Source: a virus (lineage: Duplodnaviria; Heunggongvirae; Uroviricota; Caudoviricetes). From it: DNA of 36,794 nt. Positions 3,722 to 34,061 of this stretch are shown piece after piece. Numbering within the stretch: position 1 is the first letter of the stretch; every line of letters starts with the position of its first letter. Both the position numbers and the translations under genes were made by a program. The stretch lies in the IMG/VR virus record IMGVR_UViG_2713896909_000013, one strand, 5' to 3'. The notes below the pieces were generated by a model. The model saw nothing but the letters and a program-made list of their open reading frames with translations, did no database searches and was not told where the DNA came from.

Positions 3722-3948
3722 TGGCTGATGCAATGGATCTCGTACAGCAGCGCGTTGAAGAAGAACGCCAACGCCATATCCGTGCTGCCCGTGCCAAAAC
3801 GCCGGGCGTGTCCCGCGTGCTTTGCATTGAGTGTGAAGCGCCAATTCCGCCAGCACGCCGCCGTGCCATTCCGGGTGTGCAGCTTTGCATTACCTGTCAG
3901 GAAATCGCAGAGCTGAAAGGCAAACATTACAACGGAGGTGCTGTATGA
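3721..3948 (+). CDS. TraR/DksA-family C4 zinc-finger protein
   Basis: CIEC...CITC four-cysteine motif near the C-terminus, about 75 aa, typical of the small zinc-finger ORF upstream of replication genes in P2-like phages. Confidence 0.65.
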   Translation: MADAMDLVQQRVEEERQRHIRAARAKTPGVSRVLCIECEAPIPPARRRAIPGVQLCITCQEIAELKGKHYNGGAV

Positions 3949-4802
3949 GCACCATCCTGAAATGGGCGGGAAATAAAACTGCCATAATGTCCGAACTAAA
4001 AAAACATCTTCCTGCTGGCCCGCGACTGGTTGAACCTTTCGCGGGTTCCTGTGCTGTGATGATGGAGACGGATTATCCCAGCTATCTGGTTGCGGATATT
4101 AATCCTGATTTAATCAACCTCTATAAAAAGGTTGCCGCTGATTGTGAATCGTTTATATCTCGCGCCAGAGTTTTATTTGAGATCGCAAACAGGGAGGTGG
4201 CTTATTACAACATAAGGCAGGAGTTTAATTACTCAACTGAAATTACTGATTTCATGAAAGCGGTATATTTCCTGTATCTCAATCGTCACGGTTACCGTGG
4301 TTTATGTCGCTATAACAAGAGCGGGCATTTCAACATTCCCTACGGTAATTATAAAAATCCGTATTTCCCTGAAAAAGAAATTCGCGCATTTGCAGAAAAG
4401 GCCCAGCGAGCAACGTTTATCTGCGCCAGCTTTGATGAAACGCTGGCGATGTTGAAGGCGGGGGATGTGGTGTATTGCGATCCGCCGTATGACGGTACGT
4501 TTTCCGGCTATCACACTGACGGCTTCACTGAAGATGACCAGTATCACCTGGCATCTGTTCTTGAACATCGGTCATCAGAAGGACATCCGGTCATTGTTTC
4601 TAACAGTGACACATCCCTGATCCGTTCGCTGTATCGCAATTTTACTCACCACTACATCAAGGCAAAACGCAGCATCGGTGTGGCAGCTGGCGAGGGTAAA
4701 TCAGCAACAGAAATCATTGCTGTTTCCGGGCCGCGCTGCTGGGTGGGATTTGATTATTCGCGTGGCGTGGATAGTTCTGCCGTGTACGGAGTACGTGCAT
4801 GA
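3945..4802 (+). CDS. dam: DNA adenine methyltransferase (Dam-like, N6-adenine)
   Basis: N-terminal AdoMet-binding motif (KWAGNK) and catalytic DPPY motif ([11 protein letters not shown]); RBS GGAGGTG before the ATG at 3945. Confidence 0.85.
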
Positions 4803-7213
4803 GTCATGCCGATATGAACAACTGCTGCGGCTTTAACGAAGCTGCCGCATCGTTCTCATGGAACAGCTCGAAAAAGGCCATTAACCCTTATCTGGACCCG
4901 GTGGAAGTTGCGCCGGTTTCTACGCTTTCAAACCTGATCACTCTGTACGCTGCCGATAACGAGCAGGAACAGCTGCGCCGTGAGGCGCTGAGTGATCAGG
5001 TCTGGGAGCGTTATTTCTTTAATGAATCCCGTGATCCTGTCCAGCGCGAAATGGAACAGGATAAGCTCATTAGTCGGGCAAAGCTGGCGCATGAGCAGCA
5101 GCGTTTTAATCCGGATATGGTCATTCTGGCGGACGTCAACGCCCAGCCTTCCCATATCAGCAAGCCGCTGATGCAACGTATTGAATACTTCAGCAGCCTG
5201 GGCAGGCCAAAGGCTTATTCCCGCTATTTACGTGAGACGATTAAGCCATGTCTGGAACGACTGGAGCATGTACGCGACAGTCAGCTATCTGCATCTTTTC
5301 GCTTTATGGCAAGCCATGAAGGGCTGGACGGCCTGCTGATCCTGCCTGAAATGAGTCAGGATCAGGTGAAACGCCTGTCCACCCTGGTAGCTGCGCATAT
5401 GAGTATGTGCCTTGATGCCGCTTGTGGCGATTTGTATGCCACCGATGACGTTAAGCCAGAAGAAATCCGCAATACATGGGAAAGGGTGGCAGCGGAAACC
5501 CTGCGTCTGGATGTCATCCCGCCTGCGTTTGAGCAACTCCGTCGGAAAAGAAACCGCCGTAAACCCGTGCCCTATGAACTCATTCCGGGTTCGTTGGCGC
5601 GTATGTTGTGCGCCGACTGGTGGTATCGGAAATTATGGAAGATGCGTTGCGAATGGCGGGAAGAGCAGTTGCGTGCTGTCTGCCTTGTCAGCAAAAAAGC
5701 ATCTCCCTATGTCAGCTATGAAGCCGTGTTGCATAAACGTGAGCAGCGCCGTAAGTCGCTGGAGTTTTTCCGTTCTCATGAACTGGTGAACGAAGACGGC
5801 GACACGCTGGACATGGAGGATGTGGTAAACGCCAGCAGCAGCAACCCTGCGCATCGCCGCAATGAGATGATGGCCTGTGTTAAAGGTCTGGAGCTTATCG
5901 CGGAAATGCGCGGTGACTGCGCCGTTTTCTACACCATCACCTGTCCGTCACGTTTCCATTCCACGCTAAATAACGGCAGGCCCAACCCAACCTGGACAAA
6001 TGCGACGGTAAGACAAAGCAGTGATTATCTGGTCGGCATGTTTGCTGCATTTCGTAAGGCGATGCACAAAGCCGGATTGCGGTGGTATGGCGTGCGGGTG
6101 GCTGAGCCGCATCATGACGGTACAGTTCACTGGCACCTGTTGTGTTTTATGCGCAAAAAAGACCGCCGCACCATCACTGCATTACTGCGTAAGTTTGCCA
6201 TCCGTGAAGACCGCGAGGAGCTGGGCAATAACACTGGGCCGCGCTTTAAGTCTGAGTTGATTAACCCGCGCAAAGGTACGCCAACAAGCTACATCGCGAA
6301 ATACATCAGTAAGAACATTGACGGGCGTGGTCTGGCTGGCGAGATCAGCAAGGAAACGGGGAAATCCCTGCGTGATAATGCTGAATACGTTAATGCCTGG
6401 GCGTCTCTGCATCGTGTTCAGCAATTCCGCTTCTTTGGCATTCCGGGGCGTCAGGCTTACCGTGAACTGCGATTGCTGGCTGGTCAGGCGGCAAGGCAAC
6501 AGGGGGACAAAAAAGCAGGTGCGCCGGTACTGGATAACCCGCGCCTTGATGCCATTCTGGCTGCTGCTGATGCTGGTTGTTTTGCCACCTACATCATGAA
6601 GCAGGGTGGCGTACTGGTTCCCCGCAAATATCACCTCATCAGAACTGCTTATGAAATCAACGAAGAGCCGACCGCCTATGGCGATCACGGCATTCGTATT
6701 TATGGCATCTGGTCACCTATTGCAGAGGGCAAGATCTGCACTCATGCCGTGAAGTGGAAAATGGTTCGTAAGGCCGTTGACGTTCAGGAGGCGGCAGCCG
6801 ACCAGGGCGCTTGCGCCCCTTGGACTCGTGGCAATAACTGTCCCCTTGCTGAAAATTTGTACCAACAAGGGAAAGACAAATCAGCTGATGGGGATACCAG
6901 AACGGATATCACCCGCATGGATGACAAGGAATTGCACGATTACCTGCACAGTATGAACAAAAAAGAGCGCCGGGAACTGGCTGCAAGGTTACGCCTGGTG
7001 AAACCGAAACGGCGTAGAGACTACAAACAGCGAATTACAGATCATCAGCGACAGCAGCTCGTCTATGAACTGAAGTCCAGAGGATTTGATGGCAGCGAGA
7101 AAGAGGTCGATTTACTCCTTCGCGGCGGCAGCATTCCGTCAGGAGCAGGCCTGCGTATTTTCTATCGGAACCAGCGTTTGCAGGAAGATGATAAGTGGCG
7201 GAACCTGTATTAA
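4799..7213 (+). CDS. A: replication initiation endonuclease, P2 gpA-like (rolling circle, HUH)
   Basis: 804-aa protein with an HUH-type motif (DGTVHWHLL, about 6124..6138); position and size match P2 A. Confidence 0.85.
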
Positions 7214-7305
7214 TTACGCGGGTTAACAATTCGTGCTCTTAATAATACCAGGTATATCAGGCTGATGAACGTAAAAAAACGTTTTACATCAGTAAGATTA
7301 TTATA

Positions 7306-7325
7306 TACTGTAAATATAAACAGTG
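7306..7325. promoter_or_regulatory. LexA (SOS) box
   Basis: TACTGTAAATATAAACAGTG matches the CTGT-N8-ACAG LexA consensus with an AT-rich spacer; about 40 bp upstream of the ORF at 7367. Confidence 0.7.
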
Positions 7326-7366
7326 GTTATGCGTACAGTATTGCTTGTGGTGTCATAGGAGGAAAG

Positions 7367-7555
7367 ATGCAGGACTATTTTTTGGAGTCTTTGAAGCTCC
7401 AGCGCATTGATTTTTTTCTTAAGCTTGTAGCGGCTAGTGAGTGTAGTGATGAAGAGAAGGGGCTGGCCCTGCAGTGGGTTTCTGAACTGACAGATGAACT
7501 CATGGCAAAAATCAGAACCCACGAATACAACCGCTCAATGGATGTCATCAGCTGA
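7367..7555 (+). CDS. SOS-controlled small protein, candidate Tum-like antirepressor
   Basis: 62-aa ORF with a perfect AGGAGG RBS directly downstream of the LexA box and upstream of a DinI-like gene; the antirepressor role is inference from the 186 Tum arrangement. Confidence 0.45.
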   Translation: MQDYFLESLKLQRIDFFLKLVAASECSDEEKGLALQWVSELTDELMAKIRTHEYNRSMDVIS

Positions 7556-7565
7556 GGTGACTTTT

Positions 7566-7799
7566 ATGCGCATTGAAATAATGATCGATAAAGAGCAGAA
7601 GATTAGCCAGTCTACCCTGGACGCCCTTGAATCCGAGCTTTACCGCAATCTGCGCCCCCTGTATCCCAAAACGGTAATTCGCATTCGCAAAGGTAGCTCT
7701 AACGGTGTGGAACTGACCGGACTGCAACTGGACGAAGAAAGGAAGCAAGTGATGAAAATTATGCAGAAGGTGTGGGAAGACGACAGCTGGCTGCATTAA
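7566..7799 (+). CDS. dinI: DinI-like protein
   Basis: 77 aa, MRIEIMIDKEQ...ELYRNL...LDEERKQVMKIMQKVWEDDSW resembles the DinI family in length and motif pattern; RBS GAGGTGA. Confidence 0.7.
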   Translation: MRIEIMIDKEQKISQSTLDALESELYRNLRPLYPKTVIRIRKGSSNGVELTGLQLDEERKQVMKIMQKVWEDDSWLH

Positions 7800-7829
7800 G
7801 AAACGTTGCCCCCAAGAGGATTCATTCTG

Positions 7830-8000
7830 ATGGGGGACTATTTTGGGCAACGAGTGAAACGAGGCGTTAGGTGGACGGCCATTTTGATAAGTGATCGTCC
7901 GCTTTTTGTTCTGAGTTCAAGCGATGGATTTAACACACTGGTTGAAGCAGAAGTATCTAAGTTCAATTTATATTATTTGAAGGGCACTGGTCTGATGTAG
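7830..8000 (+). CDS. questionable small ORF at the backbone/cargo boundary
   Basis: 56-aa ORF from an internal ATG with upstream AAGAGGA; overlaps an inverted repeat (GTTGCCCCC...GGGGG...GGGCAAC) that could instead be a terminator after the dinI-like gene. Confidence 0.2.
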   Translation: MGDYFGQRVKRGVRWTAILISDRPLFVLSSSDGFNTLVEAEVSKFNLYYLKGTGLM

Positions 8001-8086
8001 TACGATTTTTGCCGGAGATGGCATGTTCTATATTGATCTCATCCATATAATGATTGGTATTATTAGCTTAGTTTAAAGAGGATTGA

Positions 8087-9664
8087 ATGGATATCAACTA
8101 TGTTGTTTCAAAAATGGGGTTCGTAGATGATCTTATTAATGCAGGTTCATTTGATTCTGCCTATAAAAATGTAAAGGATATTCTTAACGGTATCGATGAG
8201 ATAAATACAATCAAAGAAAATAGAATAATTATATTATCTAATTTGGCCGGAAATCTTATTGATATCGGAAGTTTTAGTAATGTAAAAAATATAGCGGAGG
8301 AAGGCTTAAATATCTTTATAAACAATAAAAATGAATTTCTGACTATAATGAAAGAATCCTTATATTACTATAACTTGGCAAATGGAATGAGCGCAGTTCT
8401 TGATTTTAATCCTAATGACAATGCAGATATTGATAGTTTCATTAAGCTGAATGATGTAAAAAATAATTACTGGAAAGCGTTTAAACTTTCACAAGAAGAT
8501 GGATGGGTGCCCCCTGATTTAATAGTTAATCTAGCTAATGTATTAAAAAAACAATATCGTATATCTGAATCAATGGATTATTATGAACAAGCAATATCTA
8601 TTGATAACTCAATTCCTCAGGCGTGGGTAAACAGATCTGAGGCATTAGAATTGCTTAATGAATTATCTACAACATATACATATAAAATGATTAAAGAAGT
8701 TATTCGAGGTTATGAGTGTGCAATAAAGTCAGGGAAATGTTTTCCTTCATGGAAGGTTGCTCTTCAAAGAAAAATAAAGTACAACGAAAGTATATTGAGT
8801 GAATCATGTGTATATGGGATAGAGGATATAAGTACAGATGAAAGGCTCACGCAGGAGGAGTATGATACTTTATCAAACTACCAGAGGTTTTGTATAGATA
8901 ATAATCTAATGTTGTCTGATCATTCGCTATATTGCAATTGTTATGCGTCATCTAAAGATAATATAACTATTGCTACCACCGAGGAAGGTGTGTTTGGTGA
9001 TTTTATAGTGCCAATGGAAATGGTGTTAAATAGACTTAAAGCTGAGTATTCCTTAGCACGAAAAATGTTTTTTGAATATAAGGTTGATAGTGAGTTTTTT
9101 GATGAGGATTCGGAGGTATGTTATTCTGAATTGTATAATGGAGAAATATTGTATGAAAATGTTGAGAAGTTAAGGGTTGCATTTAGAGCTTGCTTTGGTA
9201 TCTTGGATAAAATAGCAGTTGCTCTGTGTCAATTATTTGATTTAAAACCAGATAGAGGACATATATACTTTCATAACTTCTGGCGGATTAGTGATGAAAA
9301 AAGAAAGCTTAAAATAAACAAAATAAATAATAAAGGATTGCTGGGTTTGTTTAGTATTGCTATGGATTTGAATGATAAAAATGGTGAGCTTGCTTTTTTT
9401 AAAGAATGGAGGAATGATTTAGAACATAAACTGTTAGTTATTCACGAGAAAGACATGTTAGTTGATTTATATAATTCTTATGGATTTTTTGATGAGGTGA
9501 GATTTATTGAGAAAGAAAAGTTTGAGAAACAGCTCTTACAACTCATGAAAATTGTGAGATCAGCCGTTATTCTTTTTGTGTTTACCATACGTATAGAGGG
9601 GAAAAAAAGTATTCCTAAAGATATGTTGACCATTAAAAATACCATCGAGAGAAAAGTATTGTAG
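8087..9664 (+). CDS. cargo protein 1: TPR-like N-terminal region with C-terminal HEPN-like domain (Rx4H motif); candidate abortive-infection RNase
   Basis: 525 aa, very AT-rich relative to the phage backbone; RBS AGAGGA and a TATAAT-like -10 upstream; RNDLEH (Rx4H) at about 9410..9427; TPR-like helical repeat signature in the N-terminal half. Domain calls are from motif reading only. Confidence 0.45.
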   Translation: MDINYVVSKMGFVDDLINAGSFDSAYKNVKDILNGIDEINTIKENRIIILSNLAGNLIDIGSFSNVKNIAEEGLNIFINNKNEFLTIMKESLYYYNLANGMSAVLDFNPNDNADIDSFIKLNDVKNNYWKAFKLSQEDGWVPPDLIVNLANVLKKQYRISESMDYYEQAISIDNSIPQAWVNRSEALELLNELSTTYTYKMIKEVIRGYECAIKSGKCFPSWKVALQRKIKYNESILSESCVYGIEDISTDERLTQEEYDTLSNYQRFCIDNNLMLSDHSLYCNCYASSKDNITIATTEEGVFGDFIVPMEMVLNRLKAEYSLARKMFFEYKVDSEFFDEDSEVCYSELYNGEILYENVEKLRVAFRACFGILDKIAVALCQLFDLKPDRGHIYFHNFWRISDEKRKLKINKINNKGLLGLFSIAMDLNDKNGELAFFKEWRNDLEHKLLVIHEKDMLVDLYNSYGFFDEVRFIEKEKFEKQLLQLMKIVRSAVILFVFTIRIEGKKSIPKDMLTIKNTIERKVL

Positions 9665-9986
9665 TATATTTTCATCGAGCGATGAAACGGTCTGTTTTTC
9701 TTTATAGTTTTGTCATAAAAAAGAGATTTCCTGCTTAAAATTTGGCTATTACAGAGCAACTATGTATGTTCCTCGCTCACAGTAGAGCTTCATCTTTGTA
9801 AGTCTGTATGTTTCGTTTTTCAAGTGGTCATTCAGATACGGACTTTCACTTCTCTTAGACAGTGCATGACTATGCTGCATGAAATCGCATGATCGTTTAA
9901 GGATCGTTTTTGCTAAGGCTCGCCAGAACTAGCGGGCTTTTACGTAGAACATGCAGGTGCATGAAAACCACTACATAAAGCGGGCA

Positions 9987-10005
9987 GGCGTGGCGGGGAT
10001 ACGAT
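9987..10005. other. cos: cos cohesive-end site (P2/186-type 19-nt sequence)
   Basis: GGCGTGGCGGGGATACGAT followed by TGCGCGC; closely matches my recollection of the P2 and 186 cohesive ends (GGCGAGGCGGGGAAAGCAC... / GGCGTGGCGGGGAAAGCAT) including the downstream TGCGCGC; sits in a GC-richer patch between the two AT-rich cargo genes. Confidence 0.6.
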
Positions 10006-10065
10006 TGCGCGCAAGCATAGATTCTGTAATATGTATGGCACATAGCAAATGACAAGGTGATTATT

Positions 10066-11805
10066 ATGCATGCGATCTTGAAACAATACGTCGAAGATCT
10101 TTCTAACCAATTTGCGATAGAAGAAGATGAACCGAAACTCTTCGAGTATTTTTGTAATTATGTTATTGCTTCTAAAAAGTATTTAGGACGATTTAGCCCT
10201 ATCGATATCACTACTCAAGAGGATGATGCCTCATTAGACGGAATTATCTTTCTTATTGATGGTGAATTAATAACTACTGTTGATGATGCTGAGGCGATAT
10301 TTAAAACCCATAAAACATCATTGCCAGTGGAGTTAATACTTACTCAGATTAAATCTGGTGAGGCTTTTGTTAAATCAGATATTGCAAATTTCAAGATTGG
10401 CTTGGATGATTTTTTAAGTCTTAAACCAAAATTACCAAATGGTATCTATAACACTCAAGCTATTGAAATATTGAAAGTAATATTTGCAAATGTAAAAAAA
10501 ATTAAAAACAAAAAACCATCGCTTACAGTTCATTATTGCACTAGTGGTACTTATGTTGAAGAGAGAGAAATTAAAGCTACATTTGATATAATTAAAAAAT
10601 CATGCTTCGATACTGACTTTTTTGATTCTGTTGACGTGAGACCTCTCGGGCGTAAAGAACTAATGGATATGTGGATATCCATAACCGAAAAAAATGAGGC
10701 TGAGTTACAGTTGATTGATTACATAGGTATCGAGGCTATGCCAGGTATCCCTCAATCATATATTGCAATTGTAAAAGCAAAGCATTTTATTGAGAAGCTT
10801 GCAAAAGATAGTGATGGAAAAATAAAAGAGTCAATTTTTGAAGAAAATATACGTGCGTTCTTAGGAAGTGATAATAATGTTAATAATAAAATATCCTCAA
10901 CTTTAGAAGATAAAAAAATAAAAGCAAAACAATTTCCAGTGTTGAATAATGGAGTGACTATAATTACTCCAGAGTTATCTATACAACCAAACACAAAAGT
11001 TATAAATCTTACAAATTATCAAATTATTAATGGTTGTCAAACAACTAATACACTCTTCCATCATTACGATAATTTAAATGATGATGTTGAGATTGTTGTC
11101 AAATTTATAGAGTCTCAAGATGCTGATGTTGCAAGTAGCATAATTGAAGCAACAAATAGTCAATCAGCAATTGAAGGAGCAGCGTTTTTTGCATTGCGTG
11201 AAAAAGCTAAAATGGTGCAGAAATATTTCGATCTACAGAGGAAAGACCCAAAACTGGAAAGTATATATTTTGAGCGGCGTGAAAATGAATATCGGCCATA
11301 TGATATACAATCTACACGTATATATGATATTAAAGAACTGGCTCGTTGCTTCATATCTGTATTTAAGCGGAACCCGCACAATGCTGCTAGATATGTTAAA
11401 AAAGTACTTAGCGAAAGCGATAATATAATATTTGGTGAGGCCGATAATGAGTGCGCATATTATACTGCGGCGTATATATGTTATAAGTATAATACTATGA
11501 TTAACGGGCGAAGAGAAAATGCACAAAAGTATAATAAATATAGATGGCATATTGCAATGTTATATCCTTGGGTCGTAAATAAAAAGGTTGAGAAAGTTGA
11601 ATTAAATTCAAAGAAAATGAGTGCCTATTGTGAGCGTATTCTTAAAACATTTTATAATGACAACTATATTAAGCATTTTTCAAAATGCCATGAGATAATT
11701 GATGCTCTTGCTTTAGATAATGAGAATGGTGTTACAGATGATCAACTAAAACGTGCACGATATACTACTAGTTTAATTGAAAAAGCTACTGAGATTTTGA
11801 AATAA
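10066..11805 (+). CDS. cargo protein 2: AIPR-like (abortive infection phage resistance family-like) protein with a possible PD-(D/E)xK-like N-terminus
   Basis: About 579 aa from the ATG at 10066 (RBS AAGGTGA); very AT-rich; NGCQTT motif at about 11029..11046, which I associate with AIPR-type proteins; N-terminal D...QxK pattern (FLIDGE...LTQIK) compatible with a restriction-endonuclease fold. Confidence 0.45.
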   Translation: MHAILKQYVEDLSNQFAIEEDEPKLFEYFCNYVIASKKYLGRFSPIDITTQEDDASLDGIIFLIDGELITTVDDAEAIFKTHKTSLPVELILTQIKSGEAFVKSDIANFKIGLDDFLSLKPKLPNGIYNTQAIEILKVIFANVKKIKNKKPSLTVHYCTSGTYVEEREIKATFDIIKKSCFDTDFFDSVDVRPLGRKELMDMWISITEKNEAELQLIDYIGIEAMPGIPQSYIAIVKAKHFIEKLAKDSDGKIKESIFEENIRAFLGSDNNVNNKISSTLEDKKIKAKQFPVLNNGVTIITPELSIQPNTKVINLTNYQIINGCQTTNTLFHHYDNLNDDVEIVVKFIESQDADVASSIIEATNSQSAIEGAAFFALREKAKMVQKYFDLQRKDPKLESIYFERRENEYRPYDIQSTRIYDIKELARCFISVFKRNPHNAARYVKKVLSESDNIIFGEADNECAYYTAAYICYKYNTMINGRRENAQKYNKYRWHIAMLYPWVVNKKVEKVELNSKKMSAYCERILKTFYNDNYIKHFSKCHEIIDALALDNENGVTDDQLKRARYTTSLIEKATEILK

Positions 11806-11811
11806 ATGGAT

Positions 11812-11842
11812 GCAGCCCAAGGAAGGGCTGCTAATTTTTATT
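11812..11842. terminator. bidirectional rho-independent terminator between cargo gene 2 and portal gene Q
   Basis: GCAGCCC-AAGGAA-GGGCTGC hairpin followed by TAATTTTTATT; lies between the convergent genes ending at 11805 and 11838. Confidence 0.6.
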
Positions 11843-12869
11843 CGAAATGATACGAAAAAAAATTGATAATGTCCTCACCTAACCAATCATTAATCTCTGA
11901 TATTCTTTTTTGTAAAGGTAATAGCTCATTCCTTACAAAAACCTTACTAGCCTTCTCCACATCTCCAAATCCCCCAACATTATTAGGCATTATTCCCATC
12001 ATCTGCGGCGGCACACGATGCGCCGCCATCATGTCATCTCGGCTGACGTTCTTAATATTCAAAAACTCATCCTTCGCCGCGACTTCTGACAACGGGATGA
12101 TCTGAAGCCCGTCCTTTTTGCCGTTAGGCGAGTACATAAACAGGTTGCGGAAATTGCCTGGTCCTTTAGCATTTTTCATCGCATTGCGGAGGTTGTTCAC
12201 GTCCTCCTGATTCTGCGCGGCGTCGGTCATGTACATGATGAAGCCTGCATGGCTGCCGTTGATGTAATACTTACGGCGGAACAGCGTTGCGGACTCGTTG
12301 AGCAGGGCGGACGGAATGGCAGAAAGATAACCGGGCAGGCCGTAGATCTCCTGATTAATATCCGGTTCCATCAGATGAAAAATGCTGCCTTTCGTGAACT
12401 GATACGGCTGGGTTGTCATACCGTATTGCACAAACCAGTAGGTATCCAGGTCTAATCCGCGTCGGGTGTATTTTGCCAGCGCAGGTTCAAGGGCGATCAC
12501 TTCACCGAAGCGGTTCGTGCGTTTCTCCAGATAGGCGTTGCCAAATACCAGATAGTCCTGCACAAAACGCGAAAAAGCCTGCTGGCTGAGCAGAGGATGA
12601 GGGATATAGGTACTGGTCAGAATGTTGCACTTTACTGCAATCGGGGAACTGTGATGCACGGCGGCGCGGAAGGTGCGAGCCAGACCGTCGAAACTCACTG
12701 GCGGCTCATACCAGCGATCTGTCTGTACGCATTGCACATAGTCCAGCAGTTCGCGGCGGTCAAGTACAGGAACGGGATCACCGAAGCTGAATGCTTCGGC
12801 TGAAGTCTGGCTTTTATGCTGGATCTGATTCGTCGCCGTAGTGCGGTTTTTCTTACTCTTTCCCATCAA
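11838..12869 (-). CDS. Q: portal protein, P2 gpQ-like
   Basis: 343 aa, matching P2 Q in size and position next to the large terminase gene. Confidence 0.85.
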   Translation of the reverse strand: MMGKSKKNRTTATNQIQHKSQTSAEAFSFGDPVPVLDRRELLDYVQCVQTDRWYEPPVSFDGLARTFRAAVHHSSPIAVKCNILTSTYIPHPLLSQQAFSRFVQDYLVFGNAYLEKRTNRFGEVIALEPALAKYTRRGLDLDTYWFVQYGMTTQPYQFTKGSIFHLMEPDINQEIYGLPGYLSAIPSALLNESATLFRRKYYINGSHAGFIMYMTDAAQNQEDVNNLRNAMKNAKGPGNFRNLFMYSPNGKKDGLQIIPLSEVAAKDEFLNIKNVSRDDMMAAHRVPPQMMGIMPNNVGGFGDVEKASKVFVRNELLPLQKRISEINDWLGEDIINFFSYHFE

Positions 12870-14632
12870 AAAATCTCCACAATATTGCTGGTATTGGCAG
12901 ACTCGCCCTGCAGCGGTTCGTTAAACAGTGCGTGCATCGTTGCCCAGGCCAGATCGGCGTGGCTGGCTTCTTCGCTGCGGCTGGCTTCATAGGTTGGGCG
13001 GTTGCCACTGGCGGTGGTTGCGCGACGGATTGCCATGAATGACTGCGCAATGTCGGTGTGTCCGGCGTCAAACTCCAGACGGCGGTGGCTGATAATGTCG
13101 TAGGCCTTGAGTACCAGGGCGTTTTTAACGTTGGGGTTGTAGACAAACTCCCGGACGGCAGGAAAAAACGCTTTCACGTTCTCGTAAACCCCGTGACCAA
13201 CGCCGGTTGAGTCGATACCGATATAGGTCACGTTGTACTGTTCGGTCAGTTTTTTGATGGCGTCAGCCTGGGCGCGGAAGTCCATTCCGCGCCACTGGTG
13301 ACGCTCAAGAATGCGGAACTTACCGCCCGGCACGGCTGGCGGCGCCACCACCACGCATCCGGCGCTGTCGCCGTTCTGCGTACCTTTCGCCGGGTCATAT
13401 CCGATCCACACTTCGCGCCAGCCAAACGGGCGCAGGGCCAGTGCATGAAAGTCGGTCCAGACTTCCCAACTGTCCACCATGCACGCCTGCAGCTCGCTGA
13501 GTGGGAACACAGACGCGAGATCGTCCACGAACTCACACATCAGCAGGTTCTGGTATTCGTCCGGGCTGTACTCCATGCGCAACTGGTCGAGGTCGAACAG
13601 GTTACAGCCGCCGCGCACCGCATCTTCCACAGTGACTATCTGGCGGTACTGCCCGTCTGCGCACAGCAGGCCGGGGGCCAGATTGCTGTGGGACAGGTCG
13701 ATGTCCACCTTATCGGCTTTGTTGCGCCCTCGGTTGAACAGCGCACCGGACCAGAACGGATAAGCACTGTGTGTCAGGCTGGATGGCGTGGAAAAATAGG
13801 TTTGTCGCCATTTTTTGTGAATAGCCATACCGGAAGCCACTTTGCGCAGCTCCTGGAATTTCGGTATCCAGAAATATTCATCCAGATACAGGTTGCCGTG
13901 GTAACTCTGGGCCGTGCGGGCATTGGTGCCGAGGAAGTACAGCGTGGCCCCGTTAGGAAGCACCATCGGATCGCCTTTCAGCTCCACCTCCACTTCTTTG
14001 GCGAAGTCGATGATGTACTGCTTAAAGACGTGGGCCTGAGCCTTGCTGGCGGAAAGGAAAATCTGGTTACGCCCGGTTAGCAGGGCGTCAATCAGGGCTT
14101 CACGGGCAAAATAGAAGGTCGCGCCGATCTGGCGTGACTTCAGCAGGTTGCGGATGCGGTTGGTTTTTCCGGCTTCCCACCAGTGGCGCTGGTAGTTGAA
14201 CATGGAGGAATGGAAGATTTCTTCCAGCTTCTCAATCTGTTCATCGGTGAAAACGTTCTTTTCCGGCTGACGGCGCGGGCCTTTGTTGCGGTTGGCGACG
14301 TTAGGGTTTAAGTCGGCTTCGTTGCCGCCATTGTTAAACTTGCCGATCCGCGCATGGCGCTCCGACTGGCGCGCCAGCAGGTCAATCTCTTTGAAATCTT
14401 TCCCTTCTTTGTGCTCCTTCATAATGAGCTGGCAGTAGCGTGCGGCGGTGGTGAGCTGCATCTGATCCAGCGGCCCATAGTCACCCCACTTGTCGCGTTT
14501 TTTCCAGCTGTGAACGGTTGCAACTTTCTCGCCCAGCATTTCAGCAATGCGGGCTACGCGGTATCCCTGAAAGTACAGCAGCATGGCCTGCCGACGGGGA
14601 TCGAGATCTGCGGGTGTCAGTGTGGTGTTCAT
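12866..14632 (-). CDS. P: terminase large (ATPase) subunit, P2 gpP-like
   Basis: 588 aa, size and position as P2 P; divergent from the O-N-M-L operon. Confidence 0.85.
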   Translation of the reverse strand: MNTTLTPADLDPRRQAMLLYFQGYRVARIAEMLGEKVATVHSWKKRDKWGDYGPLDQMQLTTAARYCQLIMKEHKEGKDFKEIDLLARQSERHARIGKFNNGGNEADLNPNVANRNKGPRRQPEKNVFTDEQIEKLEEIFHSSMFNYQRHWWEAGKTNRIRNLLKSRQIGATFYFAREALIDALLTGRNQIFLSASKAQAHVFKQYIIDFAKEVEVELKGDPMVLPNGATLYFLGTNARTAQSYHGNLYLDEYFWIPKFQELRKVASGMAIHKKWRQTYFSTPSSLTHSAYPFWSGALFNRGRNKADKVDIDLSHSNLAPGLLCADGQYRQIVTVEDAVRGGCNLFDLDQLRMEYSPDEYQNLLMCEFVDDLASVFPLSELQACMVDSWEVWTDFHALALRPFGWREVWIGYDPAKGTQNGDSAGCVVVAPPAVPGGKFRILERHQWRGMDFRAQADAIKKLTEQYNVTYIGIDSTGVGHGVYENVKAFFPAVREFVYNPNVKNALVLKAYDIISHRRLEFDAGHTDIAQSFMAIRRATTASGNRPTYEASRSEEASHADLAWATMHALFNEPLQGESANTSNIVEIF

Positions 14633-16686: not shown

Positions 16687-17337
16687 ATGAGCCTGAGTCC
16701 CGCACGGCAGCATCGCCTGCGCGTTCAGGCTGAACAGGCCGCCCGCGAGGGCGGCAGTGTTCGCCACGCATCGGGCTATGACCTGATGCTGCTGCAACTG
16801 GCGGAAGACCGCCGCCGTCTCAAGGGCGTTCAGTCCACGGTCAAAAAAGCGGAAATCAAGGTGGAGCTGCTGCCGAAGTACGCCGCCTGGGCAGAGGGTG
16901 TCCTGGCTGCCGGAGGCGCTCAACAGGATGACGTGCTGATGTACGTGATGCTGTGGCGCATTGATGCCGGAGATTATGCCGGAGCGCTGGAGATCGGGCG
17001 TCATGCCCTGCGTCATGGCTGGGTGATGCCGCTGGGTAACCGCAACGTGCAGACCGTGCTGGCAGAGGAAATGGCAGACGCCGCGCAGAGCGCAATGCTT
17101 GCCGCCACCGGCTTTGATGCCGATCTGTTGCTGCAGACGCTGGAGCTGACAGACGGTCTGGATATGCCGGACCAGTCACGGGCGCGTCTGCATAAAGCGA
17201 TTGGCGCTGTCCTGAGTGAAAGCAATCCGGCGTCCGCCCTTAATCATCTCAACCATGCGTTACAGCTCGATCCCCGCTGTGGCGTGAAAAAAGACAAACA
17301 GCAGCTGGAGCGCAGACTGCGCAATGACAGCCGCTGA
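16687..17337 (+). CDS. M: terminase small (endonuclease) subunit, P2 gpM-like
   Basis: 216 aa, position immediately after N as in P2. Confidence 0.8.
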   Translation: MSLSPARQHRLRVQAEQAAREGGSVRHASGYDLMLLQLAEDRRRLKGVQSTVKKAEIKVELLPKYAAWAEGVLAAGGAQQDDVLMYVMLWRIDAGDYAGALEIGRHALRHGWVMPLGNRNVQTVLAEEMADAAQSAMLAATGFDADLLLQTLELTDGLDMPDQSRARLHKAIGAVLSESNPASALNHLNHALQLDPRCGVKKDKQQLERRLRNDSR

Positions 17338-24604: not shown

Positions 24605-25206
24605 TGGATAACGCCGTATTAAATAGCGAGCTTATTGCCACGAAGGCGGGGAATATTACCGTCTATAACTATGATGGTGAAACTCGGGAATATATTTCCA
24701 CTTCAAATGAATATCTTGCCATTGGTGTCGGTATCCCTGCATATTCCTGTTTAGATGCCCCTGGCACACATAAGGCGGGTTATGCTATCTGCCGTTCGAT
24801 GGATTTAAATTCATGGGAATATGTGCCAGATCATCGCGGTGAAATCGTCTATAGCACCGAAACAGGAGAATCGAAAGAAATCACAGCTCCGGGTGATTAT
24901 CCTGAAAATACAACCACTATCGCCCCGTTAACGCCATACGATAAATGGAATGGTGAGAAATGGGTGACAGATACCGAGGCACTGCACGGCGCAGCAGTAG
25001 ATGCAGCAGAAGCACTGCGCCAGTCGCTGATTGATACTGCAATGGCCTCCATCAGTCTGATTCAACTGAAATTACAGGCCGGACGGAAGCTGACGCAGGC
25101 AGAAACAACCCGCCTTAACGCTGTGCTGGATTACATTGACGCGGTGACGGCAACAGATACCAGCACAGCGCCGGATGTCATCTGGCCTGAACTGCCGGAG
25201 GCGTAG
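24604..25206 (+). CDS. G: tail fibre assembly chaperone, P2 gpG-like
   Basis: 200 aa immediately after H; its C-terminus (DVIWPELPEA) is shared in type with the inverted copy. Confidence 0.8.
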   Translation: MDNAVLNSELIATKAGNITVYNYDGETREYISTSNEYLAIGVGIPAYSCLDAPGTHKAGYAICRSMDLNSWEYVPDHRGEIVYSTETGESKEITAPGDYPENTTTIAPLTPYDKWNGEKWVTDTEALHGAAVDAAEALRQSLIDTAMASISLIQLKLQAGRKLTQAETTRLNAVLDYIDAVTATDTSTAPDVIWPELPEA

Positions 25207-25621
25207 GCCATTCAATATCTGGCGCACCGGAAGTATCGATCAGCTCCAGTGCGTCCAGATAATCCAGCCACAAATTATATTGCGCCAGTTCATCACCTTT
25301 CAGACGACCAATAGCGGCTTTACCGGGCCATTGCTTACTGTTCATGTATTCGTTGGCCTGGTTAATTAGTAGCTGTCTTTCTGATTCAGTAATTTCAATA
25401 AGCTCTTCATGAGTAGGTGGAGGAATATCTGCCCACGTAGGTAGTCCATCCTCTCCGGCAATACGGACTTTTCCTTGTGGCGGTTCAGCCATAAACTCAC
25501 TGACAATATTTTGATTCACCTCCTTAGCATCTGATAAATCCCATCCTACTGATTTATATTTATCAATCATATCCACAGGGAAAAAAGCATTATGCCTGGC
25601 ACTATAAACATATTCGTTCAT
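25178..25621 (-). CDS. alternative tail fibre assembly chaperone (G', inverted orientation)
   Basis: Minus-strand ORF convergent with and overlapping G; C-terminus DIEWPTPPAVQAR resembles the G C-terminus; RBS AGGGTGA before the ATG at 25621. Confidence 0.7.
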   Translation of the reverse strand: MNEYVYSARHNAFFPVDMIDKYKSVGWDLSDAKEVNQNIVSEFMAEPPQGKVRIAGEDGLPTWADIPPPTHEELIEITESERQLLINQANEYMNSKQWPGKAAIGRLKGDELAQYNLWLDYLDALELIDTSGAPDIEWPTPPAVQAR

Positions 25622-25641
25622 ATAAATCACCCTGAATAAAA

Positions 25642-26016
25642 TTACTCACCAACAGCCCACCAACTGTAATGCATAGATACCGTGTCGCTGGTTGATGACG
25701 TTCTGTAAGCAGAATTAAAGCCGGTTAACGTAGGGCCTTCTGCAGTCATCACGAACCCTCGCCCAGCGCCTAAAGGCGCACCGCCATCACCAGAATGGGT
25801 AAGAATGGCGCAGTCCGCTTTTTTAGGGAAAGGGATAGGAAATGTAATCCTCATTGTTTGCGTCGATAATTTCGGCATAGCCTCACCTCGACCATATTGC
25901 AGAATTTTACCGTTGGGTAATTTCATCCATCCATCACCACTGGCAAAAGAAGCCATGTCCGGTATCTGATTTTCCCCTGTTCCCACACCCCGTTTCGCTG
26001 CTTCTCCCAAACCAAC
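25642..26016 (-). CDS. alternative tail fibre C-terminal segment (H', expressed only after inversion)
   Basis: Minus-strand reading frame running from the right inverted repeat to a stop just upstream of G'; has no promoter or RBS of its own in this orientation. Confidence 0.6.
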   Translation of the reverse strand, partial: VGLGEAAKRGVGTGENQIPDMASFASGDGWMKLPNGKILQYGRGEAMPKLSTQTMRITFPIPFPKKADCAILTHSGDGGAPLGAGRGFVMTAEGPTLTGFNSAYRTSSTSDTVSMHYSWWAVGE

Positions 26017-26027
26017 GTTTATGAAAA
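25991..26027. repeat. hix/gix-like recombination site (right crossover site)
   Basis: Contains CTTCTCCCAAACCAA (26001..26015), the inverted copy of the core in the H gene; lies just upstream of the invertase gene. Confidence 0.55.
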
Positions 26028-26082
26028 TGCAGAGATAATGGCTAACTGGCATCATCCCCGGTTTTTATTCAGGGGATTGATC

Positions 26083-26649
26083 ATGCTTATTGGCTATGTA
26101 CGCGTGTCAACAAATGACCAGAACACCGATTTGCAACGTAATGCACTGAACTGCGCGGGATGTGAGCGGATTTTTGAGGACAAAATCAGTGGTACTAAGT
26201 CCGACAGACCGGGGCTTAAAAAACTGCTCAGGACACTATCGGCAGGTGACACACTGGTTGTCTGGAAGCTGGACAGGTTGGGGCGCAGTATGCGGCATCT
26301 TGTTACTCTGATAGAAGAGTTGCGCCAGCGCGGCGTGAATTTCAGAAGTCTGACTGACAGTATTGATACCAGTACCCCAATGGGCCGTTTCTTTTTTCAT
26401 GTCATGGGTGCCCTGGCTGAAATGGAACGCGAACTGATAGTTGAACGTACCAGGGCAGGGCTGGCTGCAGCTCGTGCTAAAGGCAGAGTAGGTGGACGCC
26501 GTCCTAAGTTGACTACCGAACAGTGGGCACAGATTGGACGTTTACTCGAGGCCGGAGAATCAAGACAGCGTATTGCACTGATTTTTGATGTGGGCGTTTC
26601 TACCATTTATAGAAAATTTCCGGCGAATGAGAACAATGAATCGCCCTGA
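26083..26649 (+). CDS. serine DNA invertase (Hin/Gin/Pin/Cin family)
   Basis: N-terminus MLIGYVRVSTNDQNTDLQ carries the catalytic serine motif of resolvase/invertase enzymes; about 188 aa with a C-terminal HTH; RBS AGGGGA. Confidence 0.9.
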   Translation: MLIGYVRVSTNDQNTDLQRNALNCAGCERIFEDKISGTKSDRPGLKKLLRTLSAGDTLVVWKLDRLGRSMRHLVTLIEELRQRGVNFRSLTDSIDTSTPMGRFFFHVMGALAEMERELIVERTRAGLAAARAKGRVGGRRPKLTTEQWAQIGRLLEAGESRQRIALIFDVGVSTIYRKFPANENNESP

Positions 26650-33960: not shown

Positions 33961-34018
33961 TCGTTAAAAAACAGTGTTTCTAACATCATGATTTTAAACA
34001 GCTTAAATTTCAGGCAAC

Positions 34019-34061
34019 AAAAAACCCATCAACCTTGAACCTAAATGGCGGGGTTGATGGG
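34019..34061 (-). terminator. rho-independent terminator (minus strand) downstream of ybjL
   Basis: On the minus strand CCCATCAACC-loop-GGTTGATGGG followed by TTTTTTG; lies in host DNA between the att core and the ybjL 3' end. Confidence 0.5.

Follow-up and report, generated by a model that had tools for sequence, protein, structure and literature searches.

A probable cos site of the P2 family lies between two candidate defence cargo genes in a prophage of Escherichia coli

The window, by which we mean the whole 36,794-nucleotide stretch of viral DNA analysed (IMG/VR record IMGVR_UViG_2713896909_000013), is 100% identical to the genome of Escherichia coli ST130 (NZ_CP043478.1) over a P2-like prophage. 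RefSeq annotation and Pfam matches give the first block of genes as integrase, CI, CII, Fil, Dam methylase, gpA, a small open reading frame and DinI, the order of gpA and DinI being that of 186 and Fels-2. A gene for an LA2681-HEPN/TPR protein, a gap of 400 bp that contains the site discussed here and a gene for an AIPR/AbiU protein come next. Downstream of these lie Q and P, then O, N, M and L, the lysis genes, the tail genes, D and ogr. The Dam-type DNA adenine methylase gene (3945–4802) sits directly upstream of gpA and overlaps it, an arrangement common to Fels-2, SEN8 and the retron-Ec67 prophage. The genes and bounding features on which the argument draws are these:

4799–7213: gpA (Pfam Phage_GPA, 2.6e-127; RefSeq).
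7566–7799, plus strand: DinI/Tum-like gene, the backbone edge of the left cargo slot (Pfam DinI, 1.3e-22; RefSeq).
8087–9664, plus strand: cargo gene 1, in the left slot, encoding a TPR and LA2681-type HEPN protein of 525 amino acids.
10066–11805, plus strand: cargo gene 2, in the right slot, encoding an AbiU/AIPR abortive-infection protein of 579 amino acids from the ATG at 10066.
11812–11841, plus strand: hairpin (11812–11831, a 7-bp stem with six GC pairs) and T-run where cargo 2 and the portal gene converge.
11838–12866, minus strand: portal protein, the gpQ homologue (Pfam Phage_portal; RefSeq).
12866–14632, minus strand: large (ATPase) subunit of terminase, the gpP homologue (Pfam Terminase_6N, 3e-65; Terminase_6C, 1.7e-49; Terminase_5, 3.3e-27).
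16687–17337, plus strand: small (endonuclease) subunit of terminase, the gpM homologue (Pfam Phage_term_smal, 2.2e-40; RefSeq 'terminase endonuclease subunit').
34004–34029, and 74–99 bp before the start of the window: 26-bp direct repeat TAAATTT(T/C)AG(AT/GC)AACAAAAAACCCAT, the two copies being 88% identical.

The P2-type gene set is complete and no broken gene is flagged. The gpQ, gpP and gpM homologues are full length, with Pfam matches that span the whole proteins, and carry no pseudogene flags in RefSeq. The 26-bp repeats bound the prophage, which is inserted at the 3′ end of rybB, a host gene for an sRNA (RF00110, 34016–34094, minus strand, 106 bits); the excised genome would be ~34.1 kb. 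The hairpin between cargo 2 and the portal gene stands where P2 and 186 have their tQ/tW terminator, to which its sequence is unrelated. We note that RefSeq also places a 'recombinase family protein' (26083–26649, plus strand) beside two minus-strand tail-fibre-related genes (25178–25621 and 25642–26052), which come after the plus-strand tail fibre and assembly genes; the stretch 25178–26649 resembles invertible host-range segments of the Cin/Gin kind. Matches to window positions 7800–11900 were found in 1265 of 5426 complete E. coli genomes, mostly at 80–95% identity, and related P2-like prophages are thus present in about a quarter of these genomes.

The preliminary description had called the two genes beside the gap cargo, and both are indeed real AT-rich cargo genes, with ~30% GC against 50–58% in the backbone. 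Cargo 1 matches Pfam HEPN_LA2681 (1.8e-38), gives weak TPR matches and is named 'LA2681 family HEPN domain-containing protein' in RefSeq. Cargo 2 is assigned to AbiU by PADLOC (2.7e-107) and to AIPR by Pfam (1.8e-41); RefSeq also starts the gene at 10066. Their family membership makes both proteins candidates for an anti-phage function.

The gap between the cargo genes holds the following elements, with offsets counted from base 1 of the predicted cohesive end:

9862–10012, plus strand: the whole conserved non-coding island assigned to cos, 151 bp (−125 to +25).
9863–9891, plus strand: three TGCATG/GCATGA repeats, at −124, −111 and −101.
9917–9941, plus strand: GC-rich dyad GGCTCGCCAG-AA-CTAGCGGGC followed by TTTT (−70 to −46), terminator-like and placed before the cos core.
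9951–9963, plus strand: two further repeats, at −36 and −29.
9958–10012, plus strand: predicted cos core of 55 bp, in which the 19-mer is preceded by 29 bp and followed by 7 bp.
9980–9986 and 10006–10012: near-symmetric predicted nick half-sites GCGGGCA and TGCGCGC; the reverse complement of the latter, GCGCGCA, matches the former at six of seven positions.
9987–10005, plus strand: predicted 19-nt cohesive-end sequence GGCGTGGCGGGGATACGAT, assigned by homology to the 186, P2 and P4 ends.
10006–10012, plus strand: TGCGCGC, directly 3′ of the 19-mer.

When both strands of the 36.8 kb were searched with the 186 cohesive end, allowing up to three mismatches, the only match was at 9987–10005; none of 100 dinucleotide-preserving shuffles contained such a match. 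The observation is therefore real and beyond chance. The 19-mer is identical to that of 186 at 16 of 19 positions, to those of P2 and P4 at 14 and to those of Fels-2 and SEN8 at 18. The ends of the P2, 186 and P4 records were then joined and the resulting junctions aligned with the window; the P2 and 186 records annotate their own ends as cohesive ends. The homology includes the flanks: the alignment with the known cos junctions extends 29 bp leftward from the 19-mer (TGCATGAAAACC...AAAGCGGGCA) and 7 bp rightward. Over the 55-bp core the identity is 46/55 to 186, 43/55 to P2, 42/55 to P4, 53/55 to Fels-2 and 52/55 to SEN8. The concept of a 55-bp cos core is attributed to Ziermann & Calendar 1990, as quoted in PMC5694545. 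The preliminary description had recognised 19-nt ends of the P2/186 kind with TGCGCGC downstream, and these are present at 9987–10012, inside the range of 9961–10030 that it gave. The range itself holds both elements but stops short on the left, where the conserved unit reaches further, to 9862.

The near-symmetry of the half-sites is what would be expected of two nick sites under a symmetric enzyme, and the 55-bp core contains the best-conserved columns in three cos lineages. The position in the genome, between the gpA/DinI region and the portal–terminase genes, is the usual location of cos in this family. The database records of SEN8, SEN1, EtG and Smp131 begin or finish exactly at the predicted nick position. 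The SEN8 cos was 'identified by annotation' according to its paper and is 'putative' in its record; that of SEN1 was likewise identified from sequence, per its paper. Among the IMG/VR contigs listed, none ended at the predicted nick, and a literature search found no mapped virion ends for phages of the GATACGA(G/T) cos type.

Conservation around the core has well-defined limits. A blastn comparison with phage records returned a single conserved block, 9861–10014, at ~90–93% identity to Fels-2 and to P2-like phages of Klebsiella, Salmonella, Yersinia and E. coli, and the DNA on either side had no matches. We also collected 120 IMG/VR contigs carrying GGCGTGGCGGGGATACGA and anchored them on the 19-mer. 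The identity of the window to these 120 loci is 0.6–1.0 from about −127 to +28 and 0.23–0.32, the random level, outside. The left edge of the island is GTGCATGnCTATGC, at −125. The right edge is razor sharp, with nearly all contigs diverging straight after YGCGCGC. Right flanks (+40 to +100) are distinct in 104 of 119 contigs, and left flanks in 86 of 117. The similarity between P4 and P2 likewise stops once these 7 bp beyond the overhang have been passed. According to Rousset et al. 2022, the P2 terminase packages P4, and the two have a core cos signal in common; sequence further to the right is therefore unlikely to be needed.

On the left side the TGCAW motifs lie at identical offsets in P2, 186, P4, SEN8 and the window, with different intervening DNA, and each of the three cos lineages keeps them in its consensus (for the P2/P4-type and 186-type consensus sequences 120 contigs each were used). 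We regard the repeats as a candidate terminase-recognition arm. The dyad is a perfect hairpin in the lineage consensus, GCCCGCCAGAACTGGCGGGCTTTT, and imperfect in the window (9917–9941); a different GC-rich dyad is found at the same offset in P4- and 186-type sites. A search for covariation in the dyad (−70 to −46) within the lineage gave no convincing case, there being few double changes. Such an element would shield cos from read-through transcription or bind a factor. The last base of the overhang, base 19, and the base that follows it (10005–10006) co-vary, with G-C in most contigs, T-T in a minority (8 of ~119) and G-T in one. At both positions, 19 and 20, the window carries T, like 186. 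The T-T allele is paired with eight different right-hand cargos and so has been propagating.

Our reading, to which we assign a probability of about 0.88, is that this is a cos site, serving packaging and the formation of cohesive ends, and that it belongs to a P2-like prophage of ~34.1 kb that appears intact and is of the Fels-2/retron-Ec67-prophage type. Terminase (gpM plus gpP) would recognise the ~150-bp site at 9862–10012 and nick the top strand at 9986/9987 and the bottom strand at 10005/10006, within the GCGGGCA and GCGCGCA half-sites; cutting would leave 19-nt 5′ cohesive ends. Cleavage at these predicted nicks is proposed by homology with P2, 186 and P4. The long left arm, with its TGCATG repeats and dyad, probably carries the recognition function, and it appears that only 7 bp would be needed to the right of the overhang. 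With recognition in the left arm and so short a requirement on the right, foreign DNA would be tolerated flush to both edges of the site. There would thus be two separate cargo slots, one from DinI to cos (here filled by the TPR-HEPN gene) and one from cos to the portal (here filled by AbiU). The limits of this putative minimal functional cos are deduced from sequence. Taken together, the homology to cos, the position usual for the family and the intact-looking prophage support the gene order put forward in the preliminary description, in which the linear virion DNA would begin with cargo gene 2 and end with cargo gene 1.

A cos-derived sequence could also survive as a relic in a prophage that is no longer packaged, whether through the T-T allele or through a defect elsewhere. 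We consider this improbable. The T-T allele is rare in the lineage and some sibling prophages are visibly degraded, for example by the terminase-to-lysozyme deletion in CP076305. Here, however, the packaging and morphogenesis genes are all full length, the att repeats are present and the island is identical over its whole length to those of other prophages. The allele, moreover, is that of 186 itself at 19–20, and its association with eight different right-hand cargos, described above, speaks against a dead site. A role unrelated to packaging, with the island kept as a terminator or regulator of an SOS/cargo operon or as a promoter for the cargo and the 19-mer merely incidental, strikes us as very improbable. 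The terminator-like hairpin within the island and the start codon of cargo 2, just 53 bp beyond it, would suit such a role, but the best-conserved columns are those of the 55-bp core and not those of the hairpin, and P4 has the same core despite different neighbouring genes. An Rfam scan of the whole window found no family in the island, the sole match being the host sRNA RybB, and the island folded as RNA was no better than its shuffles (z = −1.36). No promoter-like match was found on the plus strand at 10013–10065, between cos and the ATG of cargo 2, and the total did not exceed that of shuffles.

The distance from the end of the 19-mer to the stop codon of the portal gene (11838) is 1832 bp, with one gene within. 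The preliminary description had this spacing right, at about 1.8 kb; its figure of roughly 0.1 kb for P2 was slightly low, the gap being 167 bp in P2 (cos at 1–19, Q from 187) and 176 bp in 186. The portal gene was located by tblastn in three sets of contigs, defined by cos type:

Fels-2-type cos (that of the window), 86 contigs with Q found: the gap is 500 bp or more in 78 (median 1673 bp); the other 8 are 'empty', at 157–191 bp.
P2/P4-type cos, 92 contigs with Q found: the slot is empty in 84 (median 169 bp) and occupied in 8.
186-type cos, 105 contigs with Q found: the slot is empty in 65, and the gap reaches 1 kb or more in 26.

The 1832-bp spacing is typical of the Fels-2-type lineage and is unusual only in comparison with P2. 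The layout is also that of Fels-2 and of SEN8, an isolated phage with two genes between cos and Q. In an earlier tally, cargo was present on both sides of cos in 29 of 53 Fels-2-type loci measurable on both sides. Expressed by lineage, the cos-to-portal slot is in use in 91% of the Fels-2 type, 9% of the P2 type and, counted at 1 kb or above, ~25% of the 186 type; in the P2 type, cargo (old, tin) lies on the opposite side of cos. No conserved right-hand boundary was found at the portal stop codon, where anchoring was imprecise.

The two cargo genes assort independently. They occur as a pair in one of 5426 complete E. coli genomes, namely ST130. Cargo 1 is accompanied by other right-hand cargo in ~10 E. 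coli genomes, with all matches stopping at window positions 10011–10029, and cargo 2 is found with a different left-hand cargo (a P-loop NTPase) in other E. coli genomes. ECCTRSRTH03 (CP041110) has the identical left cargo and island and carries the retron Ec67 RT gene where the window has AbiU. The window agrees base for base with ECCTRSRTH03 from the far left through +18 of the 19-mer, and with Survcare253 (NZ_CP076305.1) from −16 through the far right; in the remaining left arm Survcare253 differs at ~12 positions. The near-100% tracts run from ~6800 to 10004 (ECCTRSRTH03) and from ~9970 to at least 13736 (Survcare253), and past each tract the backbone is 93–98% identical. The cos core is therefore where two tracts, each of roughly 3 kb or more, meet, and the recombination joint of the window, as placed by these alignments, maps to −16 to +18 around the predicted nick. 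The Survcare253 locus (7556–8779) has the same AbiU gene and portal as the window. The prophage is defective, a deletion having joined a truncated terminase gene to a truncated lysozyme gene, yet it retains the cos island and both cargo slots.

Pairs of loci in the contig set were compared in the same way. There are 127 pairs with the same left flank and different right cargo, in which the island is identical up to +17 or +23–25. A further 18 pairs have the same right cargo and different left flanks; here the left arm differs up to −4 to −55, mostly −11, and the sequences are identical rightward of that point. The pairs used in this linkage test are not phylogenetically independent and positions 0–17 were preset by the search pattern, so the resolution of the joint in the contig set is about −10 to +17.

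We put forward tentatively, and at rather less than even odds, the idea that shuffling of the two defence slots may take place at the cos overhang, by way of cos-to-cos packaging. One single crossover between two co-replicating phages, anywhere in the 30-kb backbone, would then join the left-end cargo of one parent to the right-end cargo of the other; alternatively, the ends of two co-induced phages would be joined. After cos cutting and recircularisation the seam would, on the principles of classical phage genetics, fall in the overhang. It is nearly an even chance, in our estimate, that the joint instead reflects ordinary homologous recombination funnelled into the cos core, with the chemistry of packaging uninvolved. 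The left arms differ by ~10–20% between alleles and the 55-bp core is nearly invariant, as such funnelling would require, and the linkage of +18 to +19 in 8 of 9 T-bearing contigs leans slightly in the same direction. The identical interval available for exchange is, however, just ~28–35 bp, close to the minimum length for RecA-dependent exchange. Cos-to-cos cutting would let any single crossover reassort the end markers without an exchange at cos, and kilobase-long tracts abutting at cos fit the cos-to-cos picture. If cos-to-cos reassortment does take place, the two cargo genes, although separated by just 400 bp in the prophage, would segregate as if unlinked, and packaging would provide anti-phage genes with a built-in means of reassortment.

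For the site itself the gain is one of annotation, as RefSeq leaves the cos of the ST130 prophage unmarked. Natural variation at the locus acts as a deletion series, which suggests that the phage cannot do without 125 bp on one side and 7 bp on the other.

The cos sites of 186, P2 and P4 have the same map position as that of the window, symmetric half-sites and TGCAT repeats at −124, −111, −101 and −29. They differ from it at overhang positions 14, 16 and 17, the window having ATACGA where 186, P2 and P4 have AAAGCA, and in the portal gene, which in P2 and 186 follows cos at the short distances given above and in the window is set apart by the intervening gene. In the cos region of the Fels-2/SEN8/Felsduovirus type, the island is ~93% identical to that of the window and the layout of cargo, island, cargo and portal is alike; base 19 and the next base are T-T in the window against G-C in Fels-2 and SEN8, and the cargo genes differ too. 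The cos of lambda (cosN, cosB, cosQ) also has staggered nicks in partly symmetric half-sites and an arm of repeated motifs on one side. It is a functional analogue only, without sequence similarity to the window and with an overhang of 12 nt against 19 nt; the motif arm of the window, unlike that of lambda, lies on the side that would become the right end of the genome.

In a 186-related prophage, retrons Ec67 and Ec86 replace the DNA from cos to a terminator, as later papers cite Dodd & Egan 1996 (Virology 219:115), and other papers term the cosL-to-Q position a known hotspot. This retron slot corresponds to the right slot of the window, where the cargo is AbiU/AIPR and not a retron. As in the retron-Ec67-type slot, homology ends after TGCGCGC (10012) and the P2/186 terminator sequence is absent. 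The retron-Ec67 prophage, like the window, encodes a Dam methylase. It has also been reported to be flanked by a direct repeat of 26 bp (PMC7826664), as is the prophage here, the likeness being one of length.

Within the sections considered here, Rousset et al. 2022 define a gpA–gpQ defence hotspot of P2-like phages adjacent to cos and place the P4 hotspot between psu and int; they also speculate that cohesive ends may drive exchange. A later study (NAR 2026, gkag898), in the part considered, uses the same gpA–gpQ definition and counts AbiU as a system present in P2 as well as P4. The window has the traits of this hotspot, in that its gpA–gpQ content varies among relatives and its cargo belongs to known or candidate anti-phage families. 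Those sections of the two papers treat gpA–gpQ as a single locus, whereas in the window cos splits two independently assorting slots. The gpA–gpQ 'hotspot' would be better seen as two slots split by a sharp-edged packaging site of ~150 bp. Recombination of the slots at the cos core is the sole part of our account that goes slightly past the published descriptions, as represented by the portions considered here. A cos between defence cargos is an already described layout and is usual in this lineage; the window is an unannotated instance of it.
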